From contig CAZVFN010000001.1 of NCBI GenBank assembly GCA_964626335.1, positions 11,482-75,481 on the forward strand: DNA of 64,000 bases, written 5' to 3'. Of the stretch, positions 3,518 through 28,000 are shown piece by piece. How positions within the stretch are numbered: the stretch's first letter is position 1; every line of letters begins with the position of its first letter. The position numbers were made by a program, and so were the translations under genes. Source of the stretch: an uncultured Ectothiorhodospiraceae bacterium (GTDB taxonomy: Bacteria; Pseudomonadota; Gammaproteobacteria; XJ16; Halofilaceae). The notes beneath the pieces are model-generated. The model was not told the origin of the DNA. It saw only the letters and a list, made by a program, of their open reading frames with translations, and did not search any database.

Positions 3518-3634
3518 CGGATCTCCTCTTGCTGCACCGTTGCCCCACGCGGCGAGCCGCATCATAGCCTTTTTGGCACGCTGCGGCACAGCCTCATGCG
3601 ACGCACTGCTTGTCGCGATACGACATCCTAAAAC

Positions 3635-5228: not shown

Positions 5229-5237
5229 GGTGAGCCG

Positions 5238-7217: not shown

Positions 7218-8582
7218 TCAGAAGGCCGGCTGGATCGCCTTCATGCTCGCGCGCACCTTGTCCGGGGCGTGCCCGTACGGCGCGGCGAGCGCGTCGAACA
7301 GCCGATCGAGCTGGTCGTTCGCACGTTGCAGCGCATCGCCCTCGAGTGCGCCCTGCTGCGACAGCGTGTCGACCAGGCCCGCCAGCGCCATGGCGGCCTG
7401 GTCCGACCAGCCGCGGTCGGCGTAGCCGCTGGCCGCGCCGGCCGCCGCGATCCGCCGGGCGATGCCCTCGACCGCGGCCGTGTCGATCGGCGTGCCGGCG
7501 AGGCGCCGCTCCGCCTCGCGCGCCAGCGACAGCAGCCGCTCGGCGGCCTGTTCCACCGCCGGCACGCCGCTGCCCTGCGACCGGTGCAGCGCCTTCAACG
7601 CGTCGATCCAGCGGTTGCGCAGTTCCGGGGCGAGCTCGGCGAGCACATAGCCGAGCATGCGGAAGGTCGCGTCCTCGAACGGCACGGTGCCAGGCCCCTG
7701 GTCGACGATCGGGCGCGCGACCCAGCTCGTGTCGCCCAGTCCGTGGTGACAGCTGCGGCAATCGAAGTAGTACAGCTCGGGGAAGAGCCCGCCCCGCGCC
7801 AGGTCGTCGCGCACCTGCCGGACCTTGGTGCGCGCGGCCACGGCCTGCCCGATCGCCCAGGTCTCGGCGGCGGAGGCCGCCGTCTTGCGTTGCCGATAAT
7901 CGGCGTCGACGCGGTGATGCCGGGGCCGGATGCGGCTGAACGTGTCCGCCTCGAACAACAGCGACGGGTGGCCCGCGGCCATGATCCGGTGCGTCATGGG
8001 CGACGCCGGGTGGCTGTAGTGGCAGGACATGCACAGGCGCGTGCGCTCGACCGGTCGGTCCGTGGGATAGAGGCCATTCGCGACGTTGTCCGCGTGCGTC
8101 ACCCCGCTGTTGGTGTGCGTCTCGATCCAGTCCTCCGCTCCGCCGTGACAGGCCTCGCAGCCGACGCCGTCGCTCACCTGGAAGCGCCTGCCACGGCGCT
8201 CCTCGGGCACGTTGTCGGTGTGGCAATCCAGGCAGGTGTCGGCCGCCGTCGCGGCCCCCAGGCCCAGCCGATCCGCGATCCGCTGCGATTCATCCGTGCG
8301 CAGCACGGCGTAGGCCTTGGAGTGGGGATCCTTGCGGTGCCAGGTCAGGAACTCGTTCTGCAGCACGTCGGTACTGTCGGACGCCCGCCCGGCGCCGTGG
8401 CAGGTGCTGCCGGCGCAGGTGGCCACGCCGAGGTGCTTGCTGTCGCCGAGGCGCGGCAGGGGGGGATCGTCCTGCGCCGGCGCCATGCCGGCCACCCCCA
8501 GCAGCAGGGCCGCGCCGGCAGCTGCGCGCCGGCGCGCGAGCGGATTGCCTCGGTACACGGTCCTGCCGTAGTGTTGCCACAT
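7218..8582 (-). CDS. Secreted multihaem cytochrome c (five sites: one CX4CH and four CXXCH) with a haem-free helical C-terminal half
   Basis: GGAGAAGGAA lies upstream of ATG 8582. Signal-like N-terminus RRRAAAGAALLLGVAGMAPAQ. Haem sites CAGSTCH, CLDCH, CEACH, CMSCH, CRSCH. Divergent from the 8786 gene. Confidence 0.8.
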   Translation of the reverse strand: MWQHYGRTVYRGNPLARRRAAAGAALLLGVAGMAPAQDDPPLPRLGDSKHLGVATCAGSTCHGAGRASDSTDVLQNEFLTWHRKDPHSKAYAVLRTDESQRIADRLGLGAATAADTCLDCHTDNVPEERRGRRFQVSDGVGCEACHGGAEDWIETHTNSGVTHADNVANGLYPTDRPVERTRLCMSCHYSHPASPMTHRIMAAGHPSLLFEADTFSRIRPRHHRVDADYRQRKTAASAAETWAIGQAVAARTKVRQVRDDLARGGLFPELYYFDCRSCHHGLGDTSWVARPIVDQGPGTVPFEDATFRMLGYVLAELAPELRNRWIDALKALHRSQGSGVPAVEQAAERLLSLAREAERRLAGTPIDTAAVEGIARRIAAAGAASGYADRGWSDQAAMALAGLVDTLSQQGALEGDALQRANDQLDRLFDALAAPYGHAPDKVRASMKAIQPAF

Positions 8583-8785
8583 GGTGGGTTCCTTCTCCGG
8601 GGACTTCGCCGCAAGCTAAAGGGTCGGACCGGGTTCGAGCGTAGCGGCTCGCGGCGTTCTTTCCCAGTCCCCGGCGATCACATCGCGCCATGCGCGGTCG
8701 CCGATCGCCGGGTGATGCGGCCCGAACAAGGGGCCCGGCACTCCGCCGCCGCGCGGGTGTACCGGGTCGAGGGGGAACAATCGGC

Positions 8786-11218
8786 ATGGACCGTTACCCG
8801 GTTGCGATCGTGGGATCCGGCCCGGCCGGGCTGAGTGCAGCCTGCCGGGCCGCGGAGCGGGGCGTCGAGCACATCCTGCTCGAGGGTGCCGACCACTACG
8901 CCCACACGATCTACCGCTACCAGAAGGGCAAGCACGTGATGGCGGAGCCCAACGTGCTGCCGCTGCGCGCACCGATCCCGTTCGATGCCGGCCGGCGCGA
9001 GGAGATCCTCGAGGGCTGGGCATCCGGCGCCGGGGAGAAGGGCGCGAATACCCGCTTCAACGCCTCCGTCAAGGGCATCACGGGTGAGCGCGGCGACTTC
9101 CGCCTGACGCTCGCCGACGGCGCGGAGATCGCGGCCGAGCACGTCGTCCTGGCGATCGGCGTCCAGGGCAACCCGCGCACCCTGGGCCGCCCGGGCGAGG
9201 ACCTGCCCTTCGTCCAGTACCAGCTCGACGATCCCGGGGCCTACAGCGACGAGACGATCGTGGTCGTCGGCGCCGGCGATGCGGCGATCGAGAACGCGCT
9301 CGGCCTCGTCGAGCAGAACCGCGTGATCAGCGTCAATACGCGCGACGAGTTCACGCGCGCCAAGGACGCCAACAACCAGGCCATCCTGCAGGCGATCGAG
9401 AGTGAGTCGACGCCCATGGAGTGCTTCTACAACAGCACCGTGGACCGGGTCGATGCCCTCGAGGACGACAGCGGGTTCGCCGGCCAGATCACGCTCGACA
9501 CCGCCGAGGGCAAGGCCGAGATCAAGTGCCACCGGGTGATCGCCCGCATTGGCGCCATCCCTCCGCGCCGGTTCGTCGAGTCCTGCGGCGTCACGTTCCC
9601 CAACGACGACCCGAACTCCGTCCCGGAGGTCTCCAGCCAGTACGAGTCGAATGTCTCCGGGCTCTACATCATCGGCGCCCTCGCCGGCTATCCGCTGATC
9701 AAGCAGGCCATGAACCAGGGCTACGAGGTCGTCGAGTACATCCTCGGCCACGAAGTCGAGCCCGCCGACACGCCGCTGCTGCGCGACAAGTTCGCCGCCA
9801 TACCCGGTGGCGACGACGTCCCCGCGACGCTCGCACTGATCCAGGAGCGCGTGCCGATGCTCGCGCCGATCACGCAGCTGCAGCTGCGGGAGTTCCTGCT
9901 CGACAGCGACATCCACGCCCCCGCCGAGGGTGACACGATCTTCCGGTACAAGGACTACACCAACTCCATCTACTCGATCCTGCAGGGCGAGGTGCACGTC
10001 CACCCGGGCGATCCGAACGACCCGAAGACACCGCGCGCGGCGATCACTCTCACCCAGGGCCAGTTCTTCGGCGAGATGAGCCTGATCTCCGGGCGCCGGC
10101 GCTCGGCGACCGTGACCGCGGGCCGCGACTGCATCGTCATCGAGAGCTCGCGCCGGTCGCTGCTGACGCTGATGTACTCGGTCGAGGGCGTGCGCCGGGT
10201 GGTCGAGGAGTCCTTCCTGCTGCGCGCCATCCAGTCGCAGATCGCGCCCGGCTGCAGCGCCGAGGACCTGGGCGAGCTGGTGCGCACGGCGACGATCGAG
10301 AAGTACGCGGCCGGCGACGAGATCTTCCACGAGGGCGACGCCGGCGACTGCCTGCAGCTCATCCGCCGGGGCTCGGTGACGGTCTCGCGCCAGATCGGTG
10401 GGCGCGAGGTGGTGCTGGCGTACGTCCCGGCGGGCCAGTACGTCGGGGAGATGGCACTGGTCTCGGACGCGCCGCGTACGGCGACCGTGCGCGCCGCCGT
10501 CGCGACGGAGACGGTGCGCCTCGACGGCGACGCCTTCAAGCGCCTGCTCGAGGAGCACCCGGACGTGCGCAAGCGCGTCCAGCAGGTCTACAAGAACCGG
10601 CTGACCAGCGACATGGACCGCGGCCAGCAGCCCGAGGCCGGCGACATCATCTCGTTCCTGGTGGAGCAGGGCCTGGGCGAGGCCACCGACGTGCTGCTGA
10701 TCGACGAGTCGCTGTGCATCCGCTGCGATTACTGCGAGAGCGCCTGCGCCGATACCCACGGCGGTGTGTCGCGGCTCGACCGCGAGGCCGGCCCGACGTT
10801 CGCCCATGTGCACGTCCCGACCTCCTGCCGTCACTGCGAGCACCCGCACTGCATGAAGGACTGCCCGCCCGACGCGATCCACCGCAATCCCAACGGCGAG
10901 GTGTACATCGACGACACCTGCATCGGCTGTGGCAACTGCGAGAAGAACTGCCCCTACGGCGTGATCCAGATGGGCGTGGAGACCCGCCGCGAGCCCAGCC
11001 TGTGGGCGTGGCTGCTGACGGGGCTGGGCCCCGAGCCGGGCTCCGAGCTCAAGCCGAAGAAGAAGGAAAGCGACCAGAAGAAGGCGGTCAAGTGCGATAT
11101 GTGCAAGGATCTGCCGGGCGGCCCCGCCTGCGTGCGCGCCTGCCCGACCGGCGCGGCCCTGCGCATGAGCCCCGAGGCCTTCTTCGAGATGACGGAGAAC
11201 ACGTCGACGCGTGACTAG
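8786..11218 (+). CDS. Cytoplasmic fusion protein: FAD/NAD(P)-binding oxidoreductase, two cyclic-nucleotide-binding domains and a poly-ferredoxin (4Fe-4S) domain
   Basis: ORF 8690..11218. Start set at ATG 8786 (MDRYPVAIVGSGPAGLS), with GAGGGGGA upstream. Dinucleotide folds VAIVGSGPAG and IVVVGAGDAAIENA. cNMP cassettes FFGEMSLISGRRRSATV and YVGEMALVSDAPRTATV. Fe-S motifs CIRCDYCESAC, CRHCEHPHCMKDCP, CIGCGNCEKNCP, CDMCKD...CVRACP. Confidence 0.85.
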   Translation: MDRYPVAIVGSGPAGLSAACRAAERGVEHILLEGADHYAHTIYRYQKGKHVMAEPNVLPLRAPIPFDAGRREEILEGWASGAGEKGANTRFNASVKGITGERGDFRLTLADGAEIAAEHVVLAIGVQGNPRTLGRPGEDLPFVQYQLDDPGAYSDETIVVVGAGDAAIENALGLVEQNRVISVNTRDEFTRAKDANNQAILQAIESESTPMECFYNSTVDRVDALEDDSGFAGQITLDTAEGKAEIKCHRVIARIGAIPPRRFVESCGVTFPNDDPNSVPEVSSQYESNVSGLYIIGALAGYPLIKQAMNQGYEVVEYILGHEVEPADTPLLRDKFAAIPGGDDVPATLALIQERVPMLAPITQLQLREFLLDSDIHAPAEGDTIFRYKDYTNSIYSILQGEVHVHPGDPNDPKTPRAAITLTQGQFFGEMSLISGRRRSATVTAGRDCIVIESSRRSLLTLMYSVEGVRRVVEESFLLRAIQSQIAPGCSAEDLGELVRTATIEKYAAGDEIFHEGDAGDCLQLIRRGSVTVSRQIGGREVVLAYVPAGQYVGEMALVSDAPRTATVRAAVATETVRLDGDAFKRLLEEHPDVRKRVQQVYKNRLTSDMDRGQQPEAGDIISFLVEQGLGEATDVLLIDESLCIRCDYCESACADTHGGVSRLDREAGPTFAHVHVPTSCRHCEHPHCMKDCPPDAIHRNPNGEVYIDDTCIGCGNCEKNCPYGVIQMGVETRREPSLWAWLLTGLGPEPGSELKPKKKESDQKKAVKCDMCKDLPGGPACVRACPTGAALRMSPEAFFEMTENTSTRD

Positions 11219-11232
11219 GAGCCTGTCCGGGG
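11213..11232 (+). repeat. Solo copy of the motif CTAGGAGCCTGTCCGGG, overlapping the TAG stop of the 8786 gene
   Basis: The same 17-mer forms the left terminal repeat of the element at 39501. A diverged copy (CTAGGCGCCTGTCCG) is at 22014. No matching right end is seen downstream of this copy. Confidence 0.5.
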
Positions 11233-11426
11233 ACGGCATTCCAGGGCGCTGCGCGGGGAACCGGGTCCGCGGCGGGCGCGCGCTGCGCCGGGCTGCGCGC
11301 GGGGGAGTCGGATGACAGCGCCGCTGCACGCGTCGTGCGGCGCCGAAAGAGACCGGCCCACCGCGGCCGGCGGAGAACGAGCCGGGCGCAACCCGGCCAG
11401 AGGGAGCACCGGATGACCGCAGGTCC

Positions 11427-12365
11427 ATGCACGCCTCGTTCCTGACCTACGAGCGCTTCCGCCACCTCAAGCTCGCCCTGGCGCTCGCGCTCGCGGCGAT
11501 CGTGGCCTATGCATGGCACGACCCGGTCGGCGAGCCCAACGGCGGCACCTGGCTCGGCTACACCCTGGGGGGACTCGGGGCGGCGCTGATCCTGCTGCTG
11601 CTGTGGTACGGCGTGCGCAAGCGCCGTTTCCGGTCGCGCATGGGCACCGTCCGCGGCTGGCTGTCGGCGCACGTCTACCTCGGGCTCGTGCTGGTGGTGA
11701 TCGCGACCCTGCACACCGGCTTCGAATTCGGCTGGAACATCCACACGCTCGCCTACGCGCTGATGATCGCGGTGATCGTCAGCGGCATCTACGGCGTCTA
11801 CGCCTACCGCCGCTATCCCAACCTGATGACGGGTAACCGCACCGGCGTCGGTCCCCAGGCGATGCTCGACGAGATCGGCTCGCTCGAGCAGCAGGCCGTC
11901 GAGCTCGCCGACAGCATCGACGACCCGACCCACCAGGTCGTACTGCGCTCGATCCGCAACAACACCATCGGCGGCGGCGTGCGCGACCAGCTGCGCGGCG
12001 GACGCCCGAAGCAGGCGCGCCAGGAGGAAGACCGCGCGGAGGAGTTCCTCGAACAGAAGAACAGGACGCTGGTCGCCGACCTGGAGAAGATCAAGGCGCA
12101 GGAAGCCGACCGCATCATGCGGGCCGAGTCGACCATGCAGTTCGTCGCCGGCCATCTGGCGGCGGCCGAGCCGGGCCAGCAGGTGGAGCGCATCCGCCGC
12201 CTCATGGATCTCCTGTCGCGGCGCCGCGCCCTGGTGCGCCGGCTCAACCAGGACATCCAGCACCGCGCGCTGCTCCAGATCTGGCTGTACCTGCACGTGC
12301 CGCTTTCGCTCGGGCTGCTGGCAGCCCTCGTGGCGCACGTCGTCGCCGTGTTCACCTACTGGTAG
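11427..12365 (+). CDS. Five-TM membrane protein with two H-x13-H helices (candidate di-haem b transmembrane electron carrier) and a long charged coiled-coil insert
   Basis: TM3 reads SAH-VYLGLVLVVIATL-H and the last TM reads LH-VPLSLGLLAALVA-H, each with exactly 13 residues between the histidines. About 150 aa of charged helical sequence separates TM4 from TM5. Weak SD. The stop is 6 nt before the next gene. Confidence 0.6.
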   Translation: MHASFLTYERFRHLKLALALALAAIVAYAWHDPVGEPNGGTWLGYTLGGLGAALILLLLWYGVRKRRFRSRMGTVRGWLSAHVYLGLVLVVIATLHTGFEFGWNIHTLAYALMIAVIVSGIYGVYAYRRYPNLMTGNRTGVGPQAMLDEIGSLEQQAVELADSIDDPTHQVVLRSIRNNTIGGGVRDQLRGGRPKQARQEEDRAEEFLEQKNRTLVADLEKIKAQEADRIMRAESTMQFVAGHLAAAEPGQQVERIRRLMDLLSRRRALVRRLNQDIQHRALLQIWLYLHVPLSLGLLAALVAHVVAVFTYW

Positions 12366-12371
12366 GCCGCC

Positions 12372-14132
12372 ATGCGCGTTCTCGTTCGCCACATTACGCG
12401 CAGGTCGCAGACCGGCCTCGGCCACACCGACAAGACGGTCGCGGGCGACAGCCTCACCATTGGTCGCGGCGCGGACGCGGATGTCTTCCTCTCCGACCTG
12501 CACGTCGCCCTGCACCACGCCGTGCTGCGGCGTGTGTCGAGCGGCAGGTTCAGCGTTCAGGCGCGCACGCCGAGTGGCATCAAGATCAATGGCCGCACGC
12601 TGCAGACCGGCATCGTGCGCGCCGGCGACCGCATCGGCGTCGGCCTCAGCACCCTGCGCCTCGAGCGCGGCGACCAGGAGCACGACGTCGTCCTCGAGGT
12701 CGACGAGGCGCGGACCCGTGGCGGCGAAAAGGCGGACTCCGGGCCGACGACGCTGCGCGCGGCCGGTCTCGGCCGCCGGCGCTGGGCCTGGGCCGCCTTC
12801 CTGGTGGTGCTGGCGATCGGCCTGGGCCTGCCGCTGGCCGAGATATTCGGCGAGCGCGATGGCCTCGCCCTCGACGGCGGCAGCGCCGACGCTGCGGCGC
12901 GCGACGGCGGCGGGATCACGCGACACGTCGACTGGCTGCTGGCGGGCAGCGACCGCATCTGGGAAACCGGGCCGATGAGCAAGCCCCACCGCTCCTTCGG
13001 CGCCGATTGCGGCCAGTGCCACCGGCAGCCGTTCCAGCGCGTGAGCGACGCTGCCTGCCTCGACTGCCACGAGAACCAGCCGCACCACGCCGACGACACC
13101 GGCCTGATGCGGAGCGCCGGGCTCTCCGCTCGGCGCTGCGCGAGCTGCCACGTCGAGCACAGCGGCACCGAGGCCCTGCGCGCCGCCGACGCCGACATCT
13201 GCTCCGACTGCCACTCGGCGCCCGAGAGCAACATGCCGGGCAGCGACCTGCAGGCGGTTTCCGGCTTCGCCGGCGACCGGCACCCGCAGTTCCGCGTGCG
13301 CCTGGTGTCGTTCAACGAGGGGGGCGAGCCCGCCTGGAAGCGCGTGCCCATGGACGGGCCCGTGAGCGAGCAAAGCGGGCTCGCATTCCCCCACGACGCC
13401 CATCTGGCCGCGGACGGCGTAGAGGGTCCACAGGGCAAGGAACAGCTCGCGTGCGGCGACTGCCATCGCCCCGGGCCGACGGGCGTGACGATGCAGCCGG
13501 TGCGTTTCGAGCGCGACTGCCAGCGCTGCCACCAGCTGAACTTCGAGCCCGAGGACCCGGACCGCCAGCTACCCCACGGCCGCCCCGGGCTGGTGGTGTC
13601 GATGCTCGAGGAGTACTACTCGCGGGTCGCGCTCGCGGGCGGCTTCGACCGCGCGGACGCCGAGGTCGACCCCCCGGACGTGGTCGAGCGCGAGCGCACC
13701 GCCTCGAGCGAGCTCGAGGAGGGCGGGCGGCGTGCCGCGCTCGCCTGGGCGCGGGAACAGGCCGGCGTGGTCGCCAGCGAGATGTTCGACTACCGCGCCT
13801 GCAGCACGTGCCACCAGGTCACGCGCACGCCCGATGACCCGGCCGGCTGGCGGGTGCACCCCGTGGCGCTGACGCAGCAGTGGTTCCCGCAGGCGGATTT
13901 CACGCACGCGCGCCACGAGCAGATGGCCTGCAACGACTGCCACGAGGCCGGCGGCTCCGAGGCGGCGAGCGACGTGCTGATGCCCGGGATCGCGACCTGC
14001 CAGGAATGCCACGGCGGTTCCGGGGCGAGCGACCGGATCGCTTCCGGCTGCGTCGATTGCCACGGCTTCCACACGGCGACCGATCTGCGGATGGGGGCGA
14101 ACGATGAGGGGATGGCCCATGCGCAGCGCTAG
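12372..14132 (+). CDS. FHA domain - single TM - periplasmic decahaem cytochrome c fusion
   Basis: N-terminal FHA-like sequence (LTIGRGADADVFLSDLHVALHHAVL...IKINGRTL...GDRIGVG). TM helix WAWAAFLVVLAIGLGLPLA. Ten CXXCH sites follow: CGQCH, CLDCH, CASCH, CSDCH, CGDCH, CQRCH, CSTCH, CNDCH, CQECH, CVDCH. Confidence 0.8.
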   Translation: MRVLVRHITRRSQTGLGHTDKTVAGDSLTIGRGADADVFLSDLHVALHHAVLRRVSSGRFSVQARTPSGIKINGRTLQTGIVRAGDRIGVGLSTLRLERGDQEHDVVLEVDEARTRGGEKADSGPTTLRAAGLGRRRWAWAAFLVVLAIGLGLPLAEIFGERDGLALDGGSADAAARDGGGITRHVDWLLAGSDRIWETGPMSKPHRSFGADCGQCHRQPFQRVSDAACLDCHENQPHHADDTGLMRSAGLSARRCASCHVEHSGTEALRAADADICSDCHSAPESNMPGSDLQAVSGFAGDRHPQFRVRLVSFNEGGEPAWKRVPMDGPVSEQSGLAFPHDAHLAADGVEGPQGKEQLACGDCHRPGPTGVTMQPVRFERDCQRCHQLNFEPEDPDRQLPHGRPGLVVSMLEEYYSRVALAGGFDRADAEVDPPDVVERERTASSELEEGGRRAALAWAREQAGVVASEMFDYRACSTCHQVTRTPDDPAGWRVHPVALTQQWFPQADFTHARHEQMACNDCHEAGGSEAASDVLMPGIATCQECHGGSGASDRIASGCVDCHGFHTATDLRMGANDEGMAHAQR

Positions 14133-16182
14133 CCGGCTACTGCTCGCGACTGCCTGCCTGGCCGGCCTGCTCGCCGCCTGCGGCGGCGGCTCGCGCAGCG
14201 GCGGCTCCGATGCCGGCTCGAGCCAGGACACCGACTGCACCGGCTTTTGCCAGGACGCCGCGACCCGGCTCACGGCGAGCGATGTGCGCACCGTGATCGC
14301 CCAGGCGGCCGCAGAGGCGGACGCCCGCGGCGAGCCCGCGACCATCGCCGTCGTCGATCGCGTCGGCAACGTCCTGGGCCTGTTCCGCATGAACGGGGCC
14401 GACGCCAGCGTCGAGATCACGTCCACGCCCGGCCAGAGCGACGGCGTCGACGGGGGCCTGGAGGGCGTCAACATCATCCCCGACACGCTGGCGGCGATCG
14501 CCAAGGCCGTGACCGGGGCCTACCTCTCGTCCGAGGGCCATGCGTTCACCACCCGCACGGCGAGCCAGATCGTGCAGGCCCACTTCAACCCGGGCGAGGA
14601 CTTCCAGCCCGGGGGCCCGCTGTTCGGCGTGCAGTTCAGCCAGCTGCCCTGCTCGGACCTGGCGACCCGCTTCGACGGCGCCGACCCGATCAATGCCGGT
14701 CCCCACCGCTCGCCGCTGGGCCTGTCCGCCGACGCGGGCGGCCTGCCGCTGTACAAGAACGGCACCCCCGTCGGCGGGATCGGCGTGATCGCCGACGACG
14801 TCTACGGCCTGTCGCCGAAGGAGCTGGGCGGCGACCAGCCAACGAGCGTCGACGAGCTCGCGGCGGTCGCCGGCAGTGCCGGCTTCGCCGCGCCCGCCGC
14901 CCGGCGCGGCAACCGCATCACGGTCGAGGGCAAGCTGCTGCGCTTCGCGGCGGCGCAGCCGGGCGACCTGCGAACGGAGGCGTCGAACGCCCCCGCCTTC
15001 GCCAGCCTGGCCGGCACGACCGCGGCGGTGCCCGGCTACACCGATGGCACGATCCGCGGCGGCACGGCCTTCTCCAAGCCGGAATCGGGCATCCGCGCGA
15101 GTACCCACGCGGCCTTCAGCGGCCAGGACGCATTCGTGCTCGTTGACGATGCCGACAACCCGCGGTTCCCGCCCACGGCGGGCAGCGCCCCCGGCGGCGG
15201 CAACGCGCTCACGCAGAACGAGGTGGAGACGCTCCTCTCGGAGGCCCTCGCGGTCGCCAACCGGAGCCGTGCGCAGATCCGCCGCCCGCTCGGCAGCCGG
15301 GCCCGCGTCACGGTTTCCGTGGTCGACACCGACGGCAATGTCCTCGGCATCGTGCGCGGCCGCGACGCGCCCGTGTTCGGCATCGACGTCTCGCTGCAGA
15401 AGGCCCGGACGGCCGCGTTCTTCTCCGGCAGCGACGCGGCCACCGAGCTGCGGGCCGTGCCCGACGCCGAGTATCTCGACGGCGGCCTGTCGAGCCTGCG
15501 CAACGAGCCGATCAGCCATTACATCGACGGCGACCCGGGCGACGAGCGCCAGACGGGCGTGCGCGCCTTCCTCGGCGAGCCCAGCGCCCTCACCGGCGGT
15601 GTTGCCTTCGCCGACCGCTCCGGCGGCAACCTGTCGCGGCCGTTCTTCCCCGACGGCATCGACGGCAACCGCCACGGGCCCTTCAGCAAGCCGGGCGGCA
15701 TCGAGCCGCCCACGGAGTGGAGCCCGTTCTCCGTGGGCCTGCAGCTCGACCTGGTCTACAACGCCCTGATCCGCCACGTCGGCTTCATCGCCGGAGTGGC
15801 CGGCAGCGACGTGCCGATGAACTGCACGGGCATCCGCGGCCTGACCAACTCCGGTGGTGCCGGCCCCCTGACCCAGGCCGACACGATCGACACGGTGCGC
15901 AACGGCATCCAGATCTTCCCCGGCAGCGTGCCGATCTACCGCGGCAGCACGCTGGTCGGCGGCATCGGCGTCTCCGGCGACGGCATCGAACAGGACGACC
16001 TGATCGCGTTCCTGGGGCTGCACAACGCGGGCGAGAAGCTGGGCACGATCGACAATGCGCCGACGGCGATTCGGGCCGACAAGCTGAGTCCGGTCGACTT
16101 CGGCGTGAATTTGCGCTACGTGCAGTGCCCGCAGAAACCGTTCCTCGACAGCGATGAGCAGACCGTCTGTGAAGGCAAGTAA
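14119..16182 (+). CDS. Lipoprotein with two GlcG/HbpS-like (DUF336, haem-binding-type) domains
   Basis: ORF 14104..16182. Preferred start is ATG 14119 (MRSASRLLLATACLAGLLAAC, lipobox LAAC). DUF336-like segments ATIAVVDRVGNVLGLFRM, VTVSVVDTDGNVLGIVRGRDAPVFGIDVSLQKARTAAFF and PIYRGSTLVGGIGVSGDGIEQDDLIA. The start overlaps the upstream stop. Confidence 0.6.
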   Translation: MRSASRLLLATACLAGLLAACGGGSRSGGSDAGSSQDTDCTGFCQDAATRLTASDVRTVIAQAAAEADARGEPATIAVVDRVGNVLGLFRMNGADASVEITSTPGQSDGVDGGLEGVNIIPDTLAAIAKAVTGAYLSSEGHAFTTRTASQIVQAHFNPGEDFQPGGPLFGVQFSQLPCSDLATRFDGADPINAGPHRSPLGLSADAGGLPLYKNGTPVGGIGVIADDVYGLSPKELGGDQPTSVDELAAVAGSAGFAAPAARRGNRITVEGKLLRFAAAQPGDLRTEASNAPAFASLAGTTAAVPGYTDGTIRGGTAFSKPESGIRASTHAAFSGQDAFVLVDDADNPRFPPTAGSAPGGGNALTQNEVETLLSEALAVANRSRAQIRRPLGSRARVTVSVVDTDGNVLGIVRGRDAPVFGIDVSLQKARTAAFFSGSDAATELRAVPDAEYLDGGLSSLRNEPISHYIDGDPGDERQTGVRAFLGEPSALTGGVAFADRSGGNLSRPFFPDGIDGNRHGPFSKPGGIEPPTEWSPFSVGLQLDLVYNALIRHVGFIAGVAGSDVPMNCTGIRGLTNSGGAGPLTQADTIDTVRNGIQIFPGSVPIYRGSTLVGGIGVSGDGIEQDDLIAFLGLHNAGEKLGTIDNAPTAIRADKLSPVDFGVNLRYVQCPQKPFLDSDEQTVCEGK

Positions 16183-18034
16183 GCGCACAGTCATCGGCCT
16201 TGGCCTCGCCGCCGTCGTCCTCGCGCCGTTCGCCGCGGCCGCGGACGACGTCCGGCGCCGCCCGGGCAGCGACCGCGACCGGGTCATCGAGCGCGAGATC
16301 CCGGGCGAGCGCGACCGCGAGCGCCCGGGCAGCGATCGCCCCCGGGAGCGCGACAAGGTCGAGCAATCCCCCGATCGAGCGCAGCAGCCGCGCGAGCAGC
16401 CCGACCCCAACAGGGCCGCCGGGATCGGGCGCGTCGAGCCGGCTTCGGCGCCGGACGAGCCCGGGCGCTTGACCCTGCCCGTGCCCGATCGGTGGCGTAT
16501 CGTCAATTCGCTCGGGCTGATCGATCAGCGCTGGTGGGACCCCTACGATCAGAACACGTACAAGGCGGACAAGCCGATCCACGACGACTGGTTCCTCAAC
16601 GTCGACTTCACCTCGGACACCGTCGTCGAGCCCAGGCAGTTCCCCGTCCCCGTCTCCCCGCAGGGCACGGCACGCAGCAACGAGCTCGACCTGGTCGGCA
16701 ACGGCGAGCAGATGGTCTACGCCCAGACCTTCATCGCCGGTCTCGTCTACTACAAGGGCAACACCGTATTCAAGCCGCCCGACTGGGAATACCGGCTGAC
16801 GCTGGCCGGCCAGTACAACCACGTCGAGTCCGAGCAGGCGCGCCTGCTGCGGGCGGACCCGGACCGCGGTACCGACCGCTCCGACCAGCACCTCGGCGTC
16901 CAGGAGCTGTTCGTCGACAAGCACCTCAGAGATGTCTCGCCGCGCTATGACTTCGACTCGGTGCGCTTCGGCATCCAGCCGTTCAACGCCGATTTCCGCG
17001 GCTTCCTGTTCCAGGACGAGCCCTTCGGGGTACGCCTGTTCGGCACGCGCGACAACAACATCTTCCAGTACAACCTGGCCTGGTTCCGCCGCATCGAGAA
17101 GGACACCAACAGCGGCCTCAACGACCTCGCCGAGGGCCTGCGCGACGACGACGTCTTCGTCGCCAACCTGTTCTGGCAGGACTTCCCCGTGCTCGGCTTC
17201 GACAGCCAGGCCACGATCCTGCACAACCGCAATGAGGAAGGCGACGAGAGCGCGCACTTCAACCAGAACAACTTCATCGAGCGCCCGGCCTCCATCGGCC
17301 TGGAGAAGCCGCGCAACTACGACGTGACGTATGTCGGCCTCTCGGGCGACGGCCACTTCGGACGCACGAACTTCACCGGATCGGTGTATTACGCCCATGG
17401 CGAGCAGGACCGCGGCGTCTTCGTCGAGGAGCCCACCGACATCCGCGCCGGCTTCGCCGCCGGCGAGCTCTCCTGGGACTTCGACTGGACGCGCCTGCGC
17501 GTCTCCGGCCTCTATGCCAGCGGCGACGACGACCCGTTCGACGACGTCTCCAACGGCTTCGACGCCGTGTTCGAGAACCCGCTGTTCGCGGGCGCCGACA
17601 CCAGCTTCTGGATCCGCCAGCCCGTGCCGCTGATCGGCGGCGGTCGGGTCGCGCTGTCCGGCCGCAACGGGATACTCAACTCGCTGCGCAGCTCCAAGGA
17701 GGAAGGCCAGTCCAACTTCGACAATCCGGGCACCGTCCTGCTCGGCATCGGCACCGACCACGACGTCACGCCGCAGCTGCGTGTCTCGACCAACGTCAAC
17801 CAGCTGTGGTTCGACACGACCGAGACCGTGGAGGTCGCGCGCCAGCAGACGAACGTCGATGACGAGATCGGCACCGACATATCGGTCTCGGCAATCTACC
17901 GGCCGCTGTTCACGCAGAACATCGTCTTCCGCGGGTCGGCCGCCGTTCTCGAGCCGGGTGATGGCTACGAGCAACTGTTTGGCACCGACGACGAGGCCTA
18001 CTCCGTGCTCTTCAACCTGGTGTTGCGGTACTGA
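16154..18034 (+). CDS. Outer-membrane beta-barrel protein (porin-like) with an N-terminal Arg/Asp/Glu/Pro-rich repeat
   Basis: Signal peptide KRTVIGLGLAAVVLAPFAAAA. Repeat RPGSDRDR...RPGSDRPRERD. Long run of alternating beta-strand-like sequence. The C-terminus, ...VLFNLVLRY, ends in an aromatic residue. Overlaps the upstream gene by 29 nt and the downstream gene by 1 nt. Confidence 0.65.
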   Translation: MSRPSVKASKRTVIGLGLAAVVLAPFAAAADDVRRRPGSDRDRVIEREIPGERDRERPGSDRPRERDKVEQSPDRAQQPREQPDPNRAAGIGRVEPASAPDEPGRLTLPVPDRWRIVNSLGLIDQRWWDPYDQNTYKADKPIHDDWFLNVDFTSDTVVEPRQFPVPVSPQGTARSNELDLVGNGEQMVYAQTFIAGLVYYKGNTVFKPPDWEYRLTLAGQYNHVESEQARLLRADPDRGTDRSDQHLGVQELFVDKHLRDVSPRYDFDSVRFGIQPFNADFRGFLFQDEPFGVRLFGTRDNNIFQYNLAWFRRIEKDTNSGLNDLAEGLRDDDVFVANLFWQDFPVLGFDSQATILHNRNEEGDESAHFNQNNFIERPASIGLEKPRNYDVTYVGLSGDGHFGRTNFTGSVYYAHGEQDRGVFVEEPTDIRAGFAAGELSWDFDWTRLRVSGLYASGDDDPFDDVSNGFDAVFENPLFAGADTSFWIRQPVPLIGGGRVALSGRNGILNSLRSSKEEGQSNFDNPGTVLLGIGTDHDVTPQLRVSTNVNQLWFDTTETVEVARQQTNVDDEIGTDISVSAIYRPLFTQNIVFRGSAAVLEPGDGYEQLFGTDDEAYSVLFNLVLRY

Positions 18035-21000
18035 TGACAGCGCAAGCGAACCGAAACACGCCGATGAGCGAACCCGTCGCCCCCGGGCGCACGCCGAATC
18101 GCGCCCGGGCGTGGCTCCACGCCGGTGCCCTCGTGCTCGCGGCGACGCTGGCCTGGGGACCCGGCGACCGCGCGCAGGCGGCCTCCGCGCTCGGCGAGCC
18201 GCAGGACGTCGATTACGACCCCGCCCCGCCCGCGCCGAAGAACCAGCTGCCGGGCCAGGCCGAGGACAAGAGCGACGGCTGCCAGTCGTGCCACACCGAG
18301 ACCGACCAGAAGGACATGCACGACAACCCGGCGGTCGTTCTCGGCTGTACCGACTGCCACGGCGGCGATCACGACGTCATGCGCCCGGCCGACAGCGAAC
18401 AGGGCGATCCCGCCTACCAGAACGCGATGAAGGAAGCGCACGTCAAGCCGCTGTACCCGGGGGCGTGGAATTGGCCGAACAGCGCGACGCCGAAACGCAC
18501 GTACACGCTGCTGAACGAGGAATCGCCGGAATTCGTCCGCTTCGTGAACCCGGGCGACTACCGCGTCGCGGAGAAGGCGTGCGGCAACTGCCACGGCGAC
18601 ATCGTCGCCGCCGCCCAGCGCAGCCTGATGGCGACCTCGGCGATGTTCTGGGGCGGGGCGGCGTACAACAACGGCATCCTGCCCAACAAGCGCTACATCC
18701 TGGGCGAGGCCTACACCGACGAGGGCAAGCCCGCCAGGATCGAGAACCCGGTCGAGGTCACGGAGCCGATGAAGCGCGCCGGTGTCCGCCCCGAGCTGTG
18801 GCCCCTGCCCGCCTGGGAGACCGTGCCGCCGGCCGACGTCTTCCGCGTGTTCGAGCGTGGCGGGCGCAACAAGGAGAACCTGTTCCCCGAGACCGGCCTG
18901 CCGAACCCCGAATTCGACATCCAGGTGCTCGAGGAGCCGGGCCGCCCGGACATCCGCCAGTCGAACCGGGGCCCGGGCACCGGGCAGCGGATCGCCGTGC
19001 CGGTGCTCAACATGACCAAGACGCGGCTGAACGACCCGACCATGTGGTTCATGGGCACCAACGACAACCCGGGCGACTTCCGCTCCTCGGGCTGCTCGTC
19101 GTGCCACGTCGTCTACGCCAACGACCGCAAGGAAAAGTCCGCCGGCCAGTACGCCGAGCACGGCCACTGGGGCAAGAGCATCACCGCGGACCCGACCATC
19201 CCGAAGGATGAGAAGGGCCACCCCCTCGAACACAAGTTCACCGAGCAGATCCCGACCAGCCAGTGCATGATCTGCCACATGCACCAGCCGAATTCGTTCG
19301 TGAACTCGTTCCTCGGCTACACCATGTGGGACTACGAGTCCGATGCACCGCGCATGTGGCCCGAGGAGCAGCAATACCCGAGCTCCGAGGAGCAGCGCCG
19401 GATCAACGCCCGCAACCCCGAGGGCGCGGCCGTGCGCGGCAAGTGGGGCGACGTCGACTTCCTCTCCGGCGTATCGGAGCTGAACGACCAAATGGAGCAC
19501 ACGCAGTTCGCCGACTACCACGGCCACGGCTGGAACTTCCGCGCCGTGTTCAAGAAAGACCGCGAGGGCAAGCTGCTCGACGCGAAGGGCGACGTGGTGT
19601 CCCACGACGACCCGGAGAAGTTCGACAAGGCCGTGCACATGTCGTCGATCCACGCCGACAAGGGCATGCACTGCGTCGACTGCCACTACAGCCAGGACAC
19701 GCACGGCAACGGCCACATCTACGGTGAGGTCGCGCAGGCCATCGAGATCGAGTGCTCCGACTGCCACGGCACTGCCGAGCGCTACCCGGACCTGCTGACC
19801 AGCGGCCCGGCCGCGCCGCCGGGCGGGCGCGACATGTCGACGATGCGCACGCCCGACGGTCGCCAGCGCTTCGTCTGGCGTAACGGCGACCTGTACCAGC
19901 GCTCGCAAATGGACCCCGAAAAGGAGTGGCAGGTCAGCCTGGTCAAGGACACGGTGACGCAGGGCAGCGGCAGCTACAACGAGCGCGCCGCACGCTCCAA
20001 GCTGATGTCGTCGGACGAGCACAAGCAGGACTGGGGCCGAGACGTGGCGAAGGAGAACCGCGCGCACAAGGAATCGGAGATGATGTGCACCACCTGCCAC
20101 ACGTCCTGGACGACGAGCTGCGCGGGCTGCCATCTGCCGATCGAGGCGAACTGGAAGACCAAGCGCCATCACTACGAAGGCGGGGCCACGCGCAACTTCG
20201 CCACCTACAACCCCCAGGTGGTGCGCGACCAGATGTTCCAGCTGGGCCTGCACGGGCCCGCCAAGGGCAACCGCGTCGCACCGGTGCGCTCGTCCTCTGC
20301 GCTGGTGCTGTCGTCGCGCGACGCCGAGCGCGGGCTGATCTACACCCAGCAGCCGCCGATCTCGTCGGCCGGTTTCTCGTCGCAGGCGTTCGCGCCTCAC
20401 TTCGCGCACACCGTGCGCAAGACCGAGACGAAGTCGTGCGAGGACTGCCATCTCTCCGAGGAAGGCGACAACAACGCGATCATGTCGCAGTTGTTGCTCC
20501 AGGGGACCGATTTCGTCGATTTCGTCGGCTACAACGCCTGGGTCGGCGAGGCCGGCGGCCTGTCCGCCGTGCGCGTCAGCGAGTGGGAGGAGCCGCAGGC
20601 CGTGATCGGCAGCTACCTCCACGAGTACGCCTACCCCGACTGGTATGCGCAGCACAACAAGCGCGATCGCCAGCTGGACCAGGCCTATGACCACGGTGCC
20701 GGCGGCGAGGTCGGCTGCCTGCAACTGCGCGGCGAGTATGTCTACGCCGCCGAAGGGCCCGGGGGCTTCCAGGTCTACGACGCACAGGCGATCGGCAACA
20801 AGAACTTCTCGCAGCGCCTGATCACGCAGCCGTTCTCGCCGCTGGGCCACGACACCCAGGTCGACACGAGGAACGCGACCTGCGTCGCCCTGCCGACCAC
20901 CCAGCCGATCCACCCGGACCGCAATCAGGGCGAGCTGATGCGCGAGACCAACATGGAGCAGCCGTTCCACCCGGTCTACGACTACGCGGGCATCACCGAC

Positions 21001-21855
21001 AGCGAGGAGGGGCTGATCCTCGTCGACGTCAACACGCTCGCCGACGGCGAGCCGCGCAACAACTTCCTCGAGCGCGCGGTGACGTTCAACCCGAACGGCG
21101 TGCTCGACGGTGCGCGCGACATCACGTTCGGTGGGCACTTTGCCTACGTGGCCACCGATGACGAGCTCGTGGTGGTCGACCTGGATCAGCCCGGGCAGCC
21201 GCGGATCGCCGAGCGCATCCGCCTGCAGGATCCGCGTGCGAGTTTCGTCCAGTTCCGCTACCTGTTCGTCACCGATGCCACGGGTCTGCGGGTGATCGAC
21301 ATCACCCATCCGCAGGAGGCCGAGCTGGTTGCGGGCGCACGGGTCGAGCTGGCCGATGCGCAGGGCCTGCACGTGGCACGCACCTACGCCTACATCGCCA
21401 ACGGCGGGCAGGGTCTCGCGATCGTCGACGTGACGCGGCCGGAGGCGCCGGAGCTCTTCCAGCGCTTCGACGGCGGCGGGCGGATCGGCGACGCCCGCGA
21501 CGTCGTCGCCGGGGCCAGCTACGCCTCGGTGTTCGCCTACGTCGCGGACGGGCGCAACGGCCTGCAGGTCGTGCAGCTCACCTCGCCGGAGCGCACGCCC
21601 GGTTTCTACGGCTACAGTCCGCCGCCCGACCCGAAGTGGATCGCCGGTTACCCGACCGAGCGGCCGGCGCTGGCGCTGTCCGAGCCGCTGGAGCGCGACC
21701 GGGCAGTCGACGAGACCGGCCACCAGATCGCCGTGTTCGGGCGCATCGGCTCGCGACCGTTTGACTGGGAAGAGATGAAGCAGCTCTACCTCGACGACCA
21801 GGGCAAACCCTGGTACGTCAGCGATCCCCCGGGGGCCACCGCGGCCGGCAACTAG
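18034..21855 (+). CDS. Large secreted decahaem cytochrome c fused to a C-terminal LVIVD-repeat beta-propeller
   Basis: Signal-like ARAWLHAGALVLAATLAWGPGDRAQAAS. Ten CXXCH sites are spread over about 850 aa: CQSCH, CTDCH, CGNCH, CSSCH, CMICH, CVDCH, CSDCH, CTTCH, CAGCH, CEDCH. LVIVD-type repeats follow: GLILVDV, ELVVVDL, GLRVIDI, GLAIVDV, GLQVVQL. The ATG overlaps the upstream TGA. Confidence 0.8.
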   Translation: MTAQANRNTPMSEPVAPGRTPNRARAWLHAGALVLAATLAWGPGDRAQAASALGEPQDVDYDPAPPAPKNQLPGQAEDKSDGCQSCHTETDQKDMHDNPAVVLGCTDCHGGDHDVMRPADSEQGDPAYQNAMKEAHVKPLYPGAWNWPNSATPKRTYTLLNEESPEFVRFVNPGDYRVAEKACGNCHGDIVAAAQRSLMATSAMFWGGAAYNNGILPNKRYILGEAYTDEGKPARIENPVEVTEPMKRAGVRPELWPLPAWETVPPADVFRVFERGGRNKENLFPETGLPNPEFDIQVLEEPGRPDIRQSNRGPGTGQRIAVPVLNMTKTRLNDPTMWFMGTNDNPGDFRSSGCSSCHVVYANDRKEKSAGQYAEHGHWGKSITADPTIPKDEKGHPLEHKFTEQIPTSQCMICHMHQPNSFVNSFLGYTMWDYESDAPRMWPEEQQYPSSEEQRRINARNPEGAAVRGKWGDVDFLSGVSELNDQMEHTQFADYHGHGWNFRAVFKKDREGKLLDAKGDVVSHDDPEKFDKAVHMSSIHADKGMHCVDCHYSQDTHGNGHIYGEVAQAIEIECSDCHGTAERYPDLLTSGPAAPPGGRDMSTMRTPDGRQRFVWRNGDLYQRSQMDPEKEWQVSLVKDTVTQGSGSYNERAARSKLMSSDEHKQDWGRDVAKENRAHKESEMMCTTCHTSWTTSCAGCHLPIEANWKTKRHHYEGGATRNFATYNPQVVRDQMFQLGLHGPAKGNRVAPVRSSSALVLSSRDAERGLIYTQQPPISSAGFSSQAFAPHFAHTVRKTETKSCEDCHLSEEGDNNAIMSQLLLQGTDFVDFVGYNAWVGEAGGLSAVRVSEWEEPQAVIGSYLHEYAYPDWYAQHNKRDRQLDQAYDHGAGGEVGCLQLRGEYVYAAEGPGGFQVYDAQAIGNKNFSQRLITQPFSPLGHDTQVDTRNATCVALPTTQPIHPDRNQGELMRETNMEQPFHPVYDYAGITDSEEGLILVDVNTLADGEPRNNFLERAVTFNPNGVLDGARDITFGGHFAYVATDDELVVVDLDQPGQPRIAERIRLQDPRASFVQFRYLFVTDATGLRVIDITHPQEAELVAGARVELADAQGLHVARTYAYIANGGQGLAIVDVTRPEAPELFQRFDGGGRIGDARDVVAGASYASVFAYVADGRNGLQVVQLTSPERTPGFYGYSPPPDPKWIAGYPTERPALALSEPLERDRAVDETGHQIAVFGRIGSRPFDWEEMKQLYLDDQGKPWYVSDPPGATAAGN

Positions 21856-22017: not shown

Positions 22018-22146
22018 GCGCCTGTCCGAGAGATTCGCGCCGTCGCGAGCGCGTGGGACCAGCGAGCAGGTTTTGGCGATCGTGAAACGAGCATGGTGGT
22101 TCCCATGTGCGTCGAGCGCTCGCCGAAAGATGCTGCTGGGGCACGC
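22012..22146 (+). mobile_element. Diverged, right-end-degraded copy of MITE-like element B (paralogue of 39501..39677)
   Basis: By eye it aligns with 39505..39636 at roughly four-fifths identity (CTAGGCGCCTGTCCG...GCCGTCGCGAGCGCGTGG...GATCGTGAAACGAGCATGG...GTCGAGCGCTC...GATGCTGCTGGGGCACG). Element A sits exactly at its left CTAG. Confidence 0.5.
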
Positions 22147-22385
22147 GCGCACCGAGGCCACGGCTTCTGGGAGCGGCGCCCGGGCAAGCCCTGGTCCATG
22201 CCCTGTCGCCCGGTTTCGCCTGCCGAGCACCCGTGCCAGGCGCGCGGCCGGCGCCGGATCGCCCAATACGGGCAAGCCGCACAACGCCGCGAGTCGACCG
22301 GGCACGCGCACGGCTCGACAGTCCCTCCAACGACTGGCGTGCCCGCGCGCTTGGCCGCGACGTGCGTGTGCTATCCTGCCGCGCC

Positions 22386-23063
22386 ATGCAGTCGAGCACC
22401 CCCGCATCGCAGCCCGGATCCGACCCATTCGCCACCGGCGTCCTGCAGGTGCAAGGGCTCGGCTGCAGCCGCGGAGATCAAGTGCTGTTCGACGCACTCG
22501 AATTCCGCATCGAGCCGTCCGGGGTGCTGCTGATCGAGGGACCCAACGGTAGCGGCAAGACAACGCTGCTGCGCGCCATCTGCGGACTGGTGCCGATCGA
22601 CGCGGGTCGGATCAGCTGGAACGACCGCGCCGTGGAAACGGCCTTCGACGAAACCTACCGTGACGCGATCGCCTACGTAGGCCACGCAAGCGGGATCAAG
22701 GAAGATCTCACGGCCGCCGAGAACCTGACCGCCGCCCGCGCACTCGGCGGCGGTGGTGGCCGCGAGGGGCTCGCCCCGACCGCGGCGCTCGAGCAGCTGG
22801 GCCTCGGCTGGGCCGGCGAGCGATTGGTCCGACGCCTGTCCGCCGGACAGCGTCGCCGGGTCGCGCTGGCACGCCTGCTCACGGCACCCGCACCACTGTG
22901 GATCCTGGACGAGCCCCTGGCGGCACTCGACACCGACGGCAAGCGCTTGCTCGAGACACTGATCAGCGAGCACGCGAGCGCGGGCGGACTGACACTCATA
23001 TCGACGCATCAACCGCTGGCCCTGCCGGACGTCGGTGTCGAGCATCTCTACCTGGCCGCGTGA
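22386..23063 (+). CDS. ccmA: Cytochrome c biogenesis (System I) haem exporter, ATP-binding protein CcmA
   Basis: In-frame tail of ORF 22107..23063. Start set at ATG 22386 (MQSSTPAS). GPNGSGKTTLLR, LSAGQRRRVALARL, LWILDEP. Followed directly by ccmB. Confidence 0.85.
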   Translation: MQSSTPASQPGSDPFATGVLQVQGLGCSRGDQVLFDALEFRIEPSGVLLIEGPNGSGKTTLLRAICGLVPIDAGRISWNDRAVETAFDETYRDAIAYVGHASGIKEDLTAAENLTAARALGGGGGREGLAPTAALEQLGLGWAGERLVRRLSAGQRRRVALARLLTAPAPLWILDEPLAALDTDGKRLLETLISEHASAGGLTLISTHQPLALPDVGVEHLYLAA

Positions 23064-23065
23064 CC

Positions 23066-24239: not shown

Positions 24240-24268
24240 CGATTTCTCCTCGTGCGTCCGCCGTTCGC

Positions 24269-27998: not shown

Positions 27999-28000
27999 GG

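Follow-up and report, generated by a model that had tools for sequence, protein, structure and literature searches.

The 64,000-nucleotide stretch of DNA analyzed here (the window; contig CAZVFN010000001.1 of an uncultured Ectothiorhodospiraceae bacterium) encodes a 312-amino-acid (aa) protein with five transmembrane (TM) helices, referred to below as the 5-TM protein. This protein is probably the membrane component of a conserved module for electron transfer, in which it would bind two b-type hemes and act as an outward conduit for electrons supplied by NAD(P)H. The family to which it belongs has no name, and no relative with a solved structure was detected; the family is the invariant partner of a multiheme cytochrome c that carries an FHA domain. 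The evidence consists of two pairs of invariant His residues on two TM helices, the orientation of those helices in the membrane, and the genes that accompany the 5-TM gene.

Hydropathy and charge analysis of the 312-aa protein located five TM helices, which are listed with the intervening loops in Table 1. Cytoplasmic loop 2 contains seven Lys or Arg residues and no acidic residue, and the periplasmic loops 1 and 3 contain neither Lys nor Arg. This distribution of charge indicates an N-in, C-out topology, and the insert between TM4 and TM5 is therefore placed in the cytoplasm. By the positive-inside rule, TM3 and TM5 share one direction, from the inside to the outside. Some relatives contain two additional N-terminal helices, giving seven TM helices; homologues of the 312-aa type have five. 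The original prediction, made from the DNA letters and a list of translated open reading frames (ORFs), had singled out this ORF for an exact H-x13-H motif on TM3 and another on the last TM helix. Inspection of the codon positions confirmed both: exactly 13 residues separate the His residues of H82-VYLGLVLVVIATL-H96 on TM3 and those of H290-VPLSLGLLAALVA-H304 on TM5. The H-x13-H motif alone is only marginally unusual, as at least two such pairs were found in 4.0% of 200,000 composition-preserving shuffles of the protein (11 His in 312 residues). It is the conservation of the four His residues, and not the motif itself, that takes the two-motif pattern beyond chance.

H82, H96, H106, H290 and H304 were found to be invariant in 30 homologues with at least 50% identity. 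The comparison was extended to 112 full-length representatives reaching down to 32% identity, with a mean column identity of only 21%, and H82, H96, H290 and H304 were again invariant, which answers the check on homologues that the original prediction had named. The sole invariant columns among these representatives are G48, H82, G86, H96, G120, H290 and H304; H106, R64, K65, R66, W78, S80, N104, G123, Y127, P131, W286 and P292 are conserved in at least 90% of them. H13 and H31 were considered as ligands and rejected, since neither is conserved. Conserved pairs at a spacing of 14 residues were observed on four consecutive helices, namely G48/G62 on TM2, H82/H96 on TM3, H106/G120 on TM4 and H290/H304 on TM5, and these pairs lie 0–66 degrees off the conservation moment of their own helix. 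The pattern W-x3-H-x13-H is common to both His helices (W78 and W286), which puts the inner and the outer His pair each at matched depth. Pairing of H82 with H290 and of H96 with H304 requires parallel helices, and TM3 and TM5 both run from the inside to the outside. Covariation (mutual information with average product correction; 256 sequences, effective number approximately 170) gave the strongest inter-helix couplings for TM2–TM3, TM3–TM4 and TM2–TM5 and none for TM3–TM5. These couplings fit a ring of TM2, TM3, TM4 and TM5 with the His helices on a diagonal, and may be taken as weak evidence for such an arrangement.

The genomic setting of the 5-TM gene is also conserved. Eighty-nine related loci were compared. 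Directly downstream of the 5-TM gene, all 83 loci with room for it have a gene for a cytochrome with an FHA domain, a TM helix and a multiheme c domain (FHA-cytochrome), and a gene for a flavoprotein with cyclic nucleotide monophosphate (cNMP)-binding and iron-sulfur (Fe-S) domains (flavo-FeS protein) lies directly upstream in 69 of 72 (96%). In the metagenome-assembled genome (MAG) of Magnetococcus sp. YQC-9 (L087:6001-9333, JAMOBI010000025.1), the flavo-FeS protein and the 5-TM protein are fused in frame into a single polypeptide of 1110 aa (MEO5345780.1; P0214), in which the 5-TM part starts right after the C-terminal residues of the Fe-S protein; the FHA-cytochrome gene comes next. In the window, the 5-TM gene is the second gene of a tightly packed operon, where the next gene begins 6 nucleotides (nt) past its stop codon and later genes overlap.

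In the proposed arrangement, two low-spin b-hemes would be held inside a four-helix bundle formed by TM2–TM5. The inner heme, on the cytoplasmic side, would be ligated by H82 of TM3 and H290 of TM5, and the outer heme, on the periplasmic side, by H96 and H304. TM2 (G48/G62) and TM4 (H106/G120) would pack on the heme faces, in the manner of helices A and C of cytochrome b. Electrons would enter from NAD(P)H by way of the FAD of the upstream flavoprotein and its [4Fe-4S] chain, reach the inner heme b, and leave through the outer heme b and the ten c-hemes of the membrane-anchored cytochrome toward periplasmic or outer acceptors. The probable lineage-specific acceptors in the window are its three accessory exported proteins, i.e., an HbpS-like lipoprotein, a 626-aa protein and a decaheme LVIVD protein. 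So arranged, the module would amount to a NOX or ferric reductase split across polypeptides and supplemented with an Fe-S wire and a multiheme c acceptor. Gating of this transfer by a cyclic nucleotide and by Thr phosphorylation is suggested by the presence of two cNMP-binding domains and an FHA domain.

Outward flow is favored because the potential of NAD(P)H is low and the membrane potential is negative inside. The same di-heme wire running inward, so that periplasmic or extracellular donors (e.g., Fe(II) via multiheme cytochromes) would reduce the flavo-FeS protein and, through it, NAD(P)+, is highly improbable. The module does occur in Fe(II)-oxidizing Gallionellaceae, for which the FHA-cytochrome has been proposed to belong to the Fe(II)-oxidation chain, and also in a MAG from a biocathode (L082). 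However, inward flow would oppose the membrane potential, the reduction of NAD(P)+ by high-potential donors would be strongly uphill, and no energy-coupling subunit appears to be present. Moreover, most carriers belong to groups, namely Lysobacterales, Nevskiales and Alcanivorax, that we take to be heterotrophs.

How firmly can the 5-TM protein be placed among the di-heme cytochromes b? The family is large: a word-indexed search returned more than 3,784 matches, the homologues form 3,266 clusters (50% identity) at E ≤ 1e-3 and 341 at E ≤ 1e-30, and in a collection with one genome per species the confirmed matches number at least 593. No Pfam or NCBIfam model matched the 312-aa protein at threshold. 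The original prediction had not recognized the family, and this was borne out, with no curated family reached at threshold and no solved relative detected. In a Pfam scan of the 112 representatives, PF01292 was matched by 50 (best E 3.8e-8), DUF4405 by 13 and Ferric_reduct by four, all below threshold; the other matches were mostly singletons, together with a few unrelated families matched by two or three members. A precomputed assignment to PF01292 exists for a minority of homologues. PF01292, DUF4405 and Ferric_reduct are presumably members of one di-heme Pfam clan, and the pattern is taken as a clan-level resemblance to di-heme cytochromes b, not as membership. Public annotation of the family is inconsistent: several members are labeled "uncharacterized membrane protein YobD (UPF0266 family)" in IMG records (P0179 cluster), and the UniRef name of the Fontimonas protein is "Ferric reductase like transmembrane component".

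Several observations weigh against assigning a di-heme wire to the 5-TM protein. A fifth conserved His, H106 (98%), has no place in the heme-ligand scheme. The PF01292 match of the 312-aa protein stays below the gathering score (23.5 versus 30.1 bits, E 5.2e-5) and covers residues 9–125 only. Sequence searches of the PDB with the single protein, with a full-length profile and with a TM-only profile returned no cytochromes, the output being limited to designed TM bundles and to noise of the coiled-coil type arising from the insert. The profile-profile search envisaged by the original prediction was made with hhalign: the TM-only profile found no relative among the E. coli proteins compared, with probabilities below 1% against CybB, YodB, MsrQ and a five-protein E. 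coli alignment of PF01292 (0.3% against the five-protein alignment and less than 0.2% against CybB and YodB singly, the template profiles being shallow). The full-length AlphaFold2 (AF2) model has a mean predicted local distance difference test score (pLDDT) of 73, and its Foldseek search was dominated by the insert, the top matches being the four-helix-bundle sensor domains of TorS and McpS, which were not significant. The core was represented by the model of P0249, a 212-aa homologue without most of the insert (pLDDT 90.9, predicted template modeling score 0.86, five long helices). P0249 is probably a deletion or assembly variant and not a natural mini-form, because its 90% cluster holds a 300-aa member. 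Foldseek comparison of this core with the PDB gave a best E of 0.45 with a TM-score of 0.41, and the top hits included no NOX, CybB, FdnI or cytochrome b, Foldseek being weak on all-helical membrane bundles.

The gene-level evidence has its own exceptions, which count on the same side. The flavo-FeS gene is not adjacent to the 5-TM gene in three of 72 loci (L036, L038 and L093), which leaves room for donors other than NAD(P)H. In L036 (6541-8903) a MiaB/RimO-like radical-SAM gene stands upstream of the 5-TM gene, and in L093 (5268-9128) a stand-alone 157-aa cNMP-binding protein is followed by a seven-TM variant of 385 aa (P0212); the FHA-cytochrome gene is kept in both. The fusion is known from a single MAG, in which a stop-codon sequencing error is possible. 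Overall, the bis-heme b carrier of the original prediction has good indirect support in the four invariant His residues, their matched depth, the pairs at spacing 14, the sub-threshold Pfam matches and the gene pairing.

Alternatively, the 5-TM protein could be a non-redox scaffold or anchor for the FHA-cytochrome and the Fe-S protein, with its His residues having structural, proton-relay or metal-binding roles. In favor of this reading, no curated family is matched at threshold, no heme-protein structural neighbor was found, and a preprint on Ferrigenium detected no InterPro redox-motif match (10.64898/2026.01.22.701106, section 6.3.2). Nevertheless, a scaffold is improbable. The four invariant His residues lie within the membrane and form two H-x13-H pairs, carried by parallel helices at matching depths, and invariant Gly residues recur at the same spacing on neighboring helices. 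Half of the members match PF01292 below threshold, and fewer match DUF4405 and Ferric_reduct. Furthermore, without a transmembrane cofactor chain there would be no path from the Fe-S clusters to the c-hemes, as the single TM helix of the cytochrome has no cofactor site.

The main rival explanation accepts the two hemes and connects them to the quinone pool. As in FdnI, HyaC and the b domain of CbcL, the 5-TM protein would oxidize quinol or reduce quinone on behalf of the decaheme cytochrome, and the flavo-FeS protein would be a second input or a regulator. We regard this explanation as unlikely, though it is the most probable of the alternatives. Its first support is that the best Pfam resemblance, if sub-threshold, is to PF01292 (CybB, YodB, YceJ, HyaC and FdnI), a family of membrane di-heme b subunits. 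Characterized members of PF01292 are quinone-reactive, and FdnI and HyaC receive electrons from the docked multi-cluster Fe-S subunits FdnH and HyaA, respectively. The ligand arrangement is different, however. Alignment of the five E. coli proteins showed H13 (TM1), H45 (TM2) and H151 (TM4) to be invariant, in addition to H137 (TM4), i.e., a 1+1+2 distribution of His over four TM helices. The 5-TM family has a 2+2 distribution on TM3 and TM5, without any conserved His on TM1 or TM2, and its position 13 is mostly Tyr, Trp or Phe. The Fe-S partner is periplasmic in PF01292 systems, whereas it is cytoplasmic here. No quinone-site motif was identified in the 5-TM protein, and the adjacency of the flavo-FeS gene in 96% of loci, together with its one fusion, argues for direct input from the cytoplasmic side. 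On the other hand, the pairing with the FHA-cytochrome is invariant (83/83) and the flavo-FeS gene is the one that can be missing (3/72), which would suit a quinone-linked protein, and the Ferrigenium preprint proposes a link between the cytochrome and the quinone pool (10.64898/2026.01.22.701106).

A functional analogy to the quinone-linked explanation is offered by CbcL, MtoC and MtrH of Geobacter and Fe-cycling bacteria, which, as is proposed here, combine a periplasmic multiheme c moiety with an inner-membrane di-heme b moiety that feeds periplasmic or extracellular electron transfer. CbcL contains nine CX2CH motifs and an HydC/FdnI-like di-heme b domain and has been proposed to be a quinol oxidase (PMC6295460). 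Unlike the module in the window, CbcL unites b and c in one polypeptide, has a six-TM b domain and menaquinol as its proposed substrate, and lacks a cytoplasmic flavo-FeS partner, an FHA domain and cNMP domains.

With an NAD(P)H-fed wire as the preferred reading, the closest descriptive match is the bis-histidyl TM3/TM5 rule of the NOX/FRD proteins (NOX2, SpNOX and FRE1; PF01794). NOX enzymes are defined by a bis-histidyl motif on each of TM3 and TM5, two stacked b-hemes and the passage of electrons from cytoplasmic NAD(P)H outward (PMC5676040). The 5-TM protein shares the His pairs on TM3 and TM5, the inside-to-outside direction of both helices and the spacing of approximately 13 residues, and its proposed cytoplasmic NAD(P)H/FAD donor is encoded alongside and, in one MAG, fused. 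However, NOX/FRD proteins have six TM helices, whereas the 5-TM protein has five and contains a cytoplasmic helical insert of approximately 120–155 aa between TM4 and TM5. NOX carries a C-terminal FNR-type FAD/NADPH dehydrogenase domain, which is lacking in the 5-TM protein, as this ends at most four residues past TM5; here, a TrxR/YpdA-like flavoprotein encoded separately, with cNMP domains and a multi-[4Fe-4S] wire, would be the donor. NOX/FRD proteins pass electrons to O2 or Fe(III), and a multiheme cytochrome c would receive them here. No PF01794 match was found for the 312-aa protein at E ≤ 1, and four of the 112 members matched (best E 0.001).

The layout of TM2–TM5, which can be written G-x13-G / H-x13-H / H-x13-G / H-x13-H, also resembles, as a sequence pattern, that of cytochrome b of the bc1 and b6f complexes. 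In cytochrome b, two hemes lie in a four-helix bundle A–D, in which all four ligands come from helices B and D (PMC7908018); helix A contributes a conserved Gly for packing against the heme (PMC8379992). No sequence or Foldseek similarity between cytochrome b and the 5-TM protein was detected. Cytochrome b has eight helices (or a 4+3 split), whereas the 5-TM protein lacks helices E–H and the Qo and Qi motifs. The packing positions of cytochrome b are Gly, and one of those here is His (H106). In addition, cytochrome b works with Rieske and cytochrome c1 partners, and no Rieske or c1 gene was found in the conserved neighborhood of the 5-TM gene. The logic of the system as a whole is shared with the Tmc, Hmc and DsrMKJOP complexes of sulfate reducers, which bring together a multiheme c on the periplasmic side, a cytochrome b in the membrane and an Fe-S protein in the cytoplasm, so that redox reactions on the two sides of the membrane are linked. 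These complexes use cytochromes b of the NarI/DsrM type and HdrD-like CCG Fe-S proteins, and to our knowledge none of them has an NAD(P)H-flavin module, a cNMP domain or an FHA domain.

The insert between TM4 and TM5 was present in 112 of 112 representatives, with a length of 100–197 aa (median 122). Its flanks (residues 128–190 and 248–282) are moderately conserved. Within the whole protein, conservation is lowest at residues 191–247 (49% gaps, mean frequency of the top residue 0.15), and this middle segment is absent from some full-length homologues such as P0106. The original prediction had described a coiled-coil insert of approximately 150 aa. The length holds (approximately 155 aa, cytoplasmic), but the coiled coil does not: the AF2 model places helices at residues 105–138, 143–164, 166–177, 195–232 and 249–310, and the insert is better described as a predicted helical bundle continuous with TM4 and TM5 than as a canonical coiled coil. 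A highly charged stretch, EEDRAEEFLEQKNRTLVADLEKIKAQEADRIMRAE (residues 200–234; nt 12024-12128), had been suggested as a place where the FHA domain or the Fe-S protein could dock. No support was found for this suggestion, because the stretch lies within the least conserved, often gapped middle segment. The conserved flanks could instead serve as a cytoplasmic docking platform. A conserved phospho-Thr docking site in the insert was also considered and rejected, as no Thr exceeds 65% conservation.

The Fe-S domain of the upstream partner is homologous to the cluster-chain ferredoxins HycB3, HycB4, HycB and ArrB; relatives of such HycB/ArrB-type subunits dock onto membrane cytochromes b. The true start of this partner is probably M33 at position 8786, because its homologues have approximately 797–807 aa and the mechanical ORF opens 32 codons before MDRYPVAIVGSGPAGL. 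The Arg-rich extension thus left at 8690-8785 is not a Tat signal. Between this gene and the 5-TM gene lies a very GC-rich gap of 208 nt (11219-11426), which measures 12–99 nt in relatives. A Shine-Dalgarno-like motif, GAGGGAG, was observed in this gap at position 11400. An ATG at 11413, out of frame and 7 nt downstream of the motif, starts a 10-codon ORF that overlaps the start codon of the 5-TM gene. In the downstream partner, the FHA domain (12372-12680) contains the canonical phospho-Thr-binding signature as read from the sequence, with GR in IGRG, SxxH in SDLH and NG in INGR. Pfam scores the phospho-independent YscD-type FHA fold equally well, and no kinase or phosphatase gene is conserved near the FHA-cytochrome gene.

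Table 1. Features of the 5-TM protein and its surroundings. Positions are those of the window; helix boundaries are approximate residue (res) numbers of the 5-TM protein, and ligand and packing roles are proposals.
Feature	Position	Strand	Description
5-TM gene	11427..12365	+	Predicted di-heme cytochrome b ORF, five TM helices, 312 aa plus stop; >3,000 homologous clusters
TM1	11466..11516	+	Res 14-30; peripheral, poorly conserved; H13 and H31 not conserved
TM2	11550..11615	+	Res 42-63, out to in; conserved G48-x13-G62 on conserved face; proposed heme-packing helix
Cytoplasmic loop 2	11616..11657	+	Res 64-77; R64-K65-R66 conserved ≥90%; candidate propionate or partner contact
TM3	11658..11720	+	Res 78-98, in to out; W78-x3-H82-x13-H96, G86 invariant; H82 (inner heme) and H96 (outer heme) proposed as axial ligands
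Periplasmic loop 3	11721..11741	+	Res 99-105, FEFGWNI; highly conserved (N104 98%)
TM4	11739..11807	+	Res 105-127, out to in; H106 (98%)-x13-G120 (invariant), plus G123 and Y127; proposed second packing helix
Cytoplasmic helical insert	11808..12272	+	Res 128-282
TM5	12273..12362	+	Res 283-312, in to out; W286-x3-H290-x13-H304; H290 (inner heme) and H304 (outer heme) proposed as second axial ligands
Upstream partner (flavo-FeS)	8690..11218	+	Cytoplasmic Pyr_redox (YpdA/TrxR-like) flavoprotein; two cNMP-binding domains; HycB/ArrB-like multi-[4Fe-4S] ferredoxin domain (four-cluster)
Downstream partner (FHA-cytochrome)	12372..14132	+	N-terminal cytoplasmic FHA domain; one TM helix (res 137-161 of this protein); periplasmic domain with 10 CxxCH
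Accessory lipoprotein	14104..16182	+	HbpS-like (PF03928), three repeats, 692 aa
Accessory exported protein	16154..18034	+	626 aa, no family
Accessory exported LVIVD protein	18034..21855	+	1273 aa, 10 CxxCH and LVIVD beta-propeller repeats
Cytochrome c554/c7-like protein	7218..8582	-	Divergent multiheme protein, 4 CxxCH plus 1 CX4CH, signal peptide; in a subset of loci
ccmA and ccmB	22107..23734	+	ABC_tran and PF03379; directly after the cytochrome cluster
Hydrogenase cluster	24269-30097	-	Isp-type [NiFe]
Hydrogenase small subunit	28001-29191	-	
218-aa ORF	27339-27998	-	No Pfam match; where a membrane cytochrome b is expected
HdrD-like protein	26005-27342	-	Fer4 and CCG
Hydrogenase large subunit	24269-26008	-	
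Maturation protease	29579-30097	-	HycI-type

The genes for the HbpS-like, 626-aa-type and LVIVD proteins are present in 56 of 69 loci and absent from Gallionellaceae, Magnetococcus and Tahibacter; no relative of the 626-aa or the 1273-aa protein was found in the PDB sequence search. The ccmA and ccmB genes behind the cytochrome cluster count in favor of the proposed module. A complete ccm operon was not seen, the ORF that follows ccmB (23757-24401) having no Pfam match. In the upstream flank, a NuoF-like protein with 2Fe-2S thioredoxin-like, Nuo51 FMN and NADH_4Fe-4S regions is encoded at 1820-3589 on the minus strand, and genes of a branched-chain amino-acid ABC transporter are found at 3751-6104 on the plus strand; neither is conserved in related loci. 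An Isp-type [NiFe] hydrogenase cluster is also encoded in the window (Table 1). Rfam and tRNA scans of the window returned nothing.

The module is carried by Gammaproteobacteria (Lysobacterales, Nevskiales, Steroidobacteraceae and Alcanivorax), by Alphaproteobacteria (Oceanibacterium and Rhodovibrio, the latter containing the closest relative of the 5-TM protein at 83% identity), and by Gallionellaceae of the Betaproteobacteria and Magnetococcus. Cultured carriers include Tahibacter, Fontimonas thermophila, Oceanibacterium hippocampi and Alcanivorax. Recently, in a preprint of May 2026, the same trio was described from Ferrigenium straubiae, where an FHA-nonaheme cytochrome ("NHC") is joined by a membrane protein of five helices and a [4Fe-4S] protein (10.64898/2026.01.22.701106). 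The membrane partner, having no redox motif in InterPro, was read there as a scaffold (10.64898/2026.01.22.701106). A pangenome study of Gallionellaceae had listed a ten-heme "Forkhead-associated protein" cluster, for which no function was given (PMC10734462). No publication recognizing the 5-TM protein as a heme protein was found in a literature search of incomplete coverage.

A wider proposal is advanced tentatively and falls short of an even bet. The 5-TM family may be a new fold-level lineage of di-heme cytochrome b that allows quinone-independent, NAD(P)H-fed electron export under cNMP and phospho-Thr gating, a "split NOX with an iron-sulfur wire" occurring in hundreds of proteobacterial species, including Fe(II)-oxidizing Gallionellaceae. 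Known routes to periplasmic and extracellular multiheme cytochromes, such as CymA, CbcL and ImcH, start at the quinone pool (PMC6295460). If the proposal is true, the path from NAD(P)H through Fe-S clusters and two b-hemes to a decaheme cytochrome would be a different entry point to extracellular and periplasmic electron transfer, and the module would dissipate membrane potential instead of conserving it, under the control of second messengers. The module is abundant and is found in cultured, tractable bacteria. The FHA-cytochrome is already a candidate in the physiology of Fe(II) oxidizers, and the four invariant candidate heme-ligand His residues make the role of its membrane partner directly testable.

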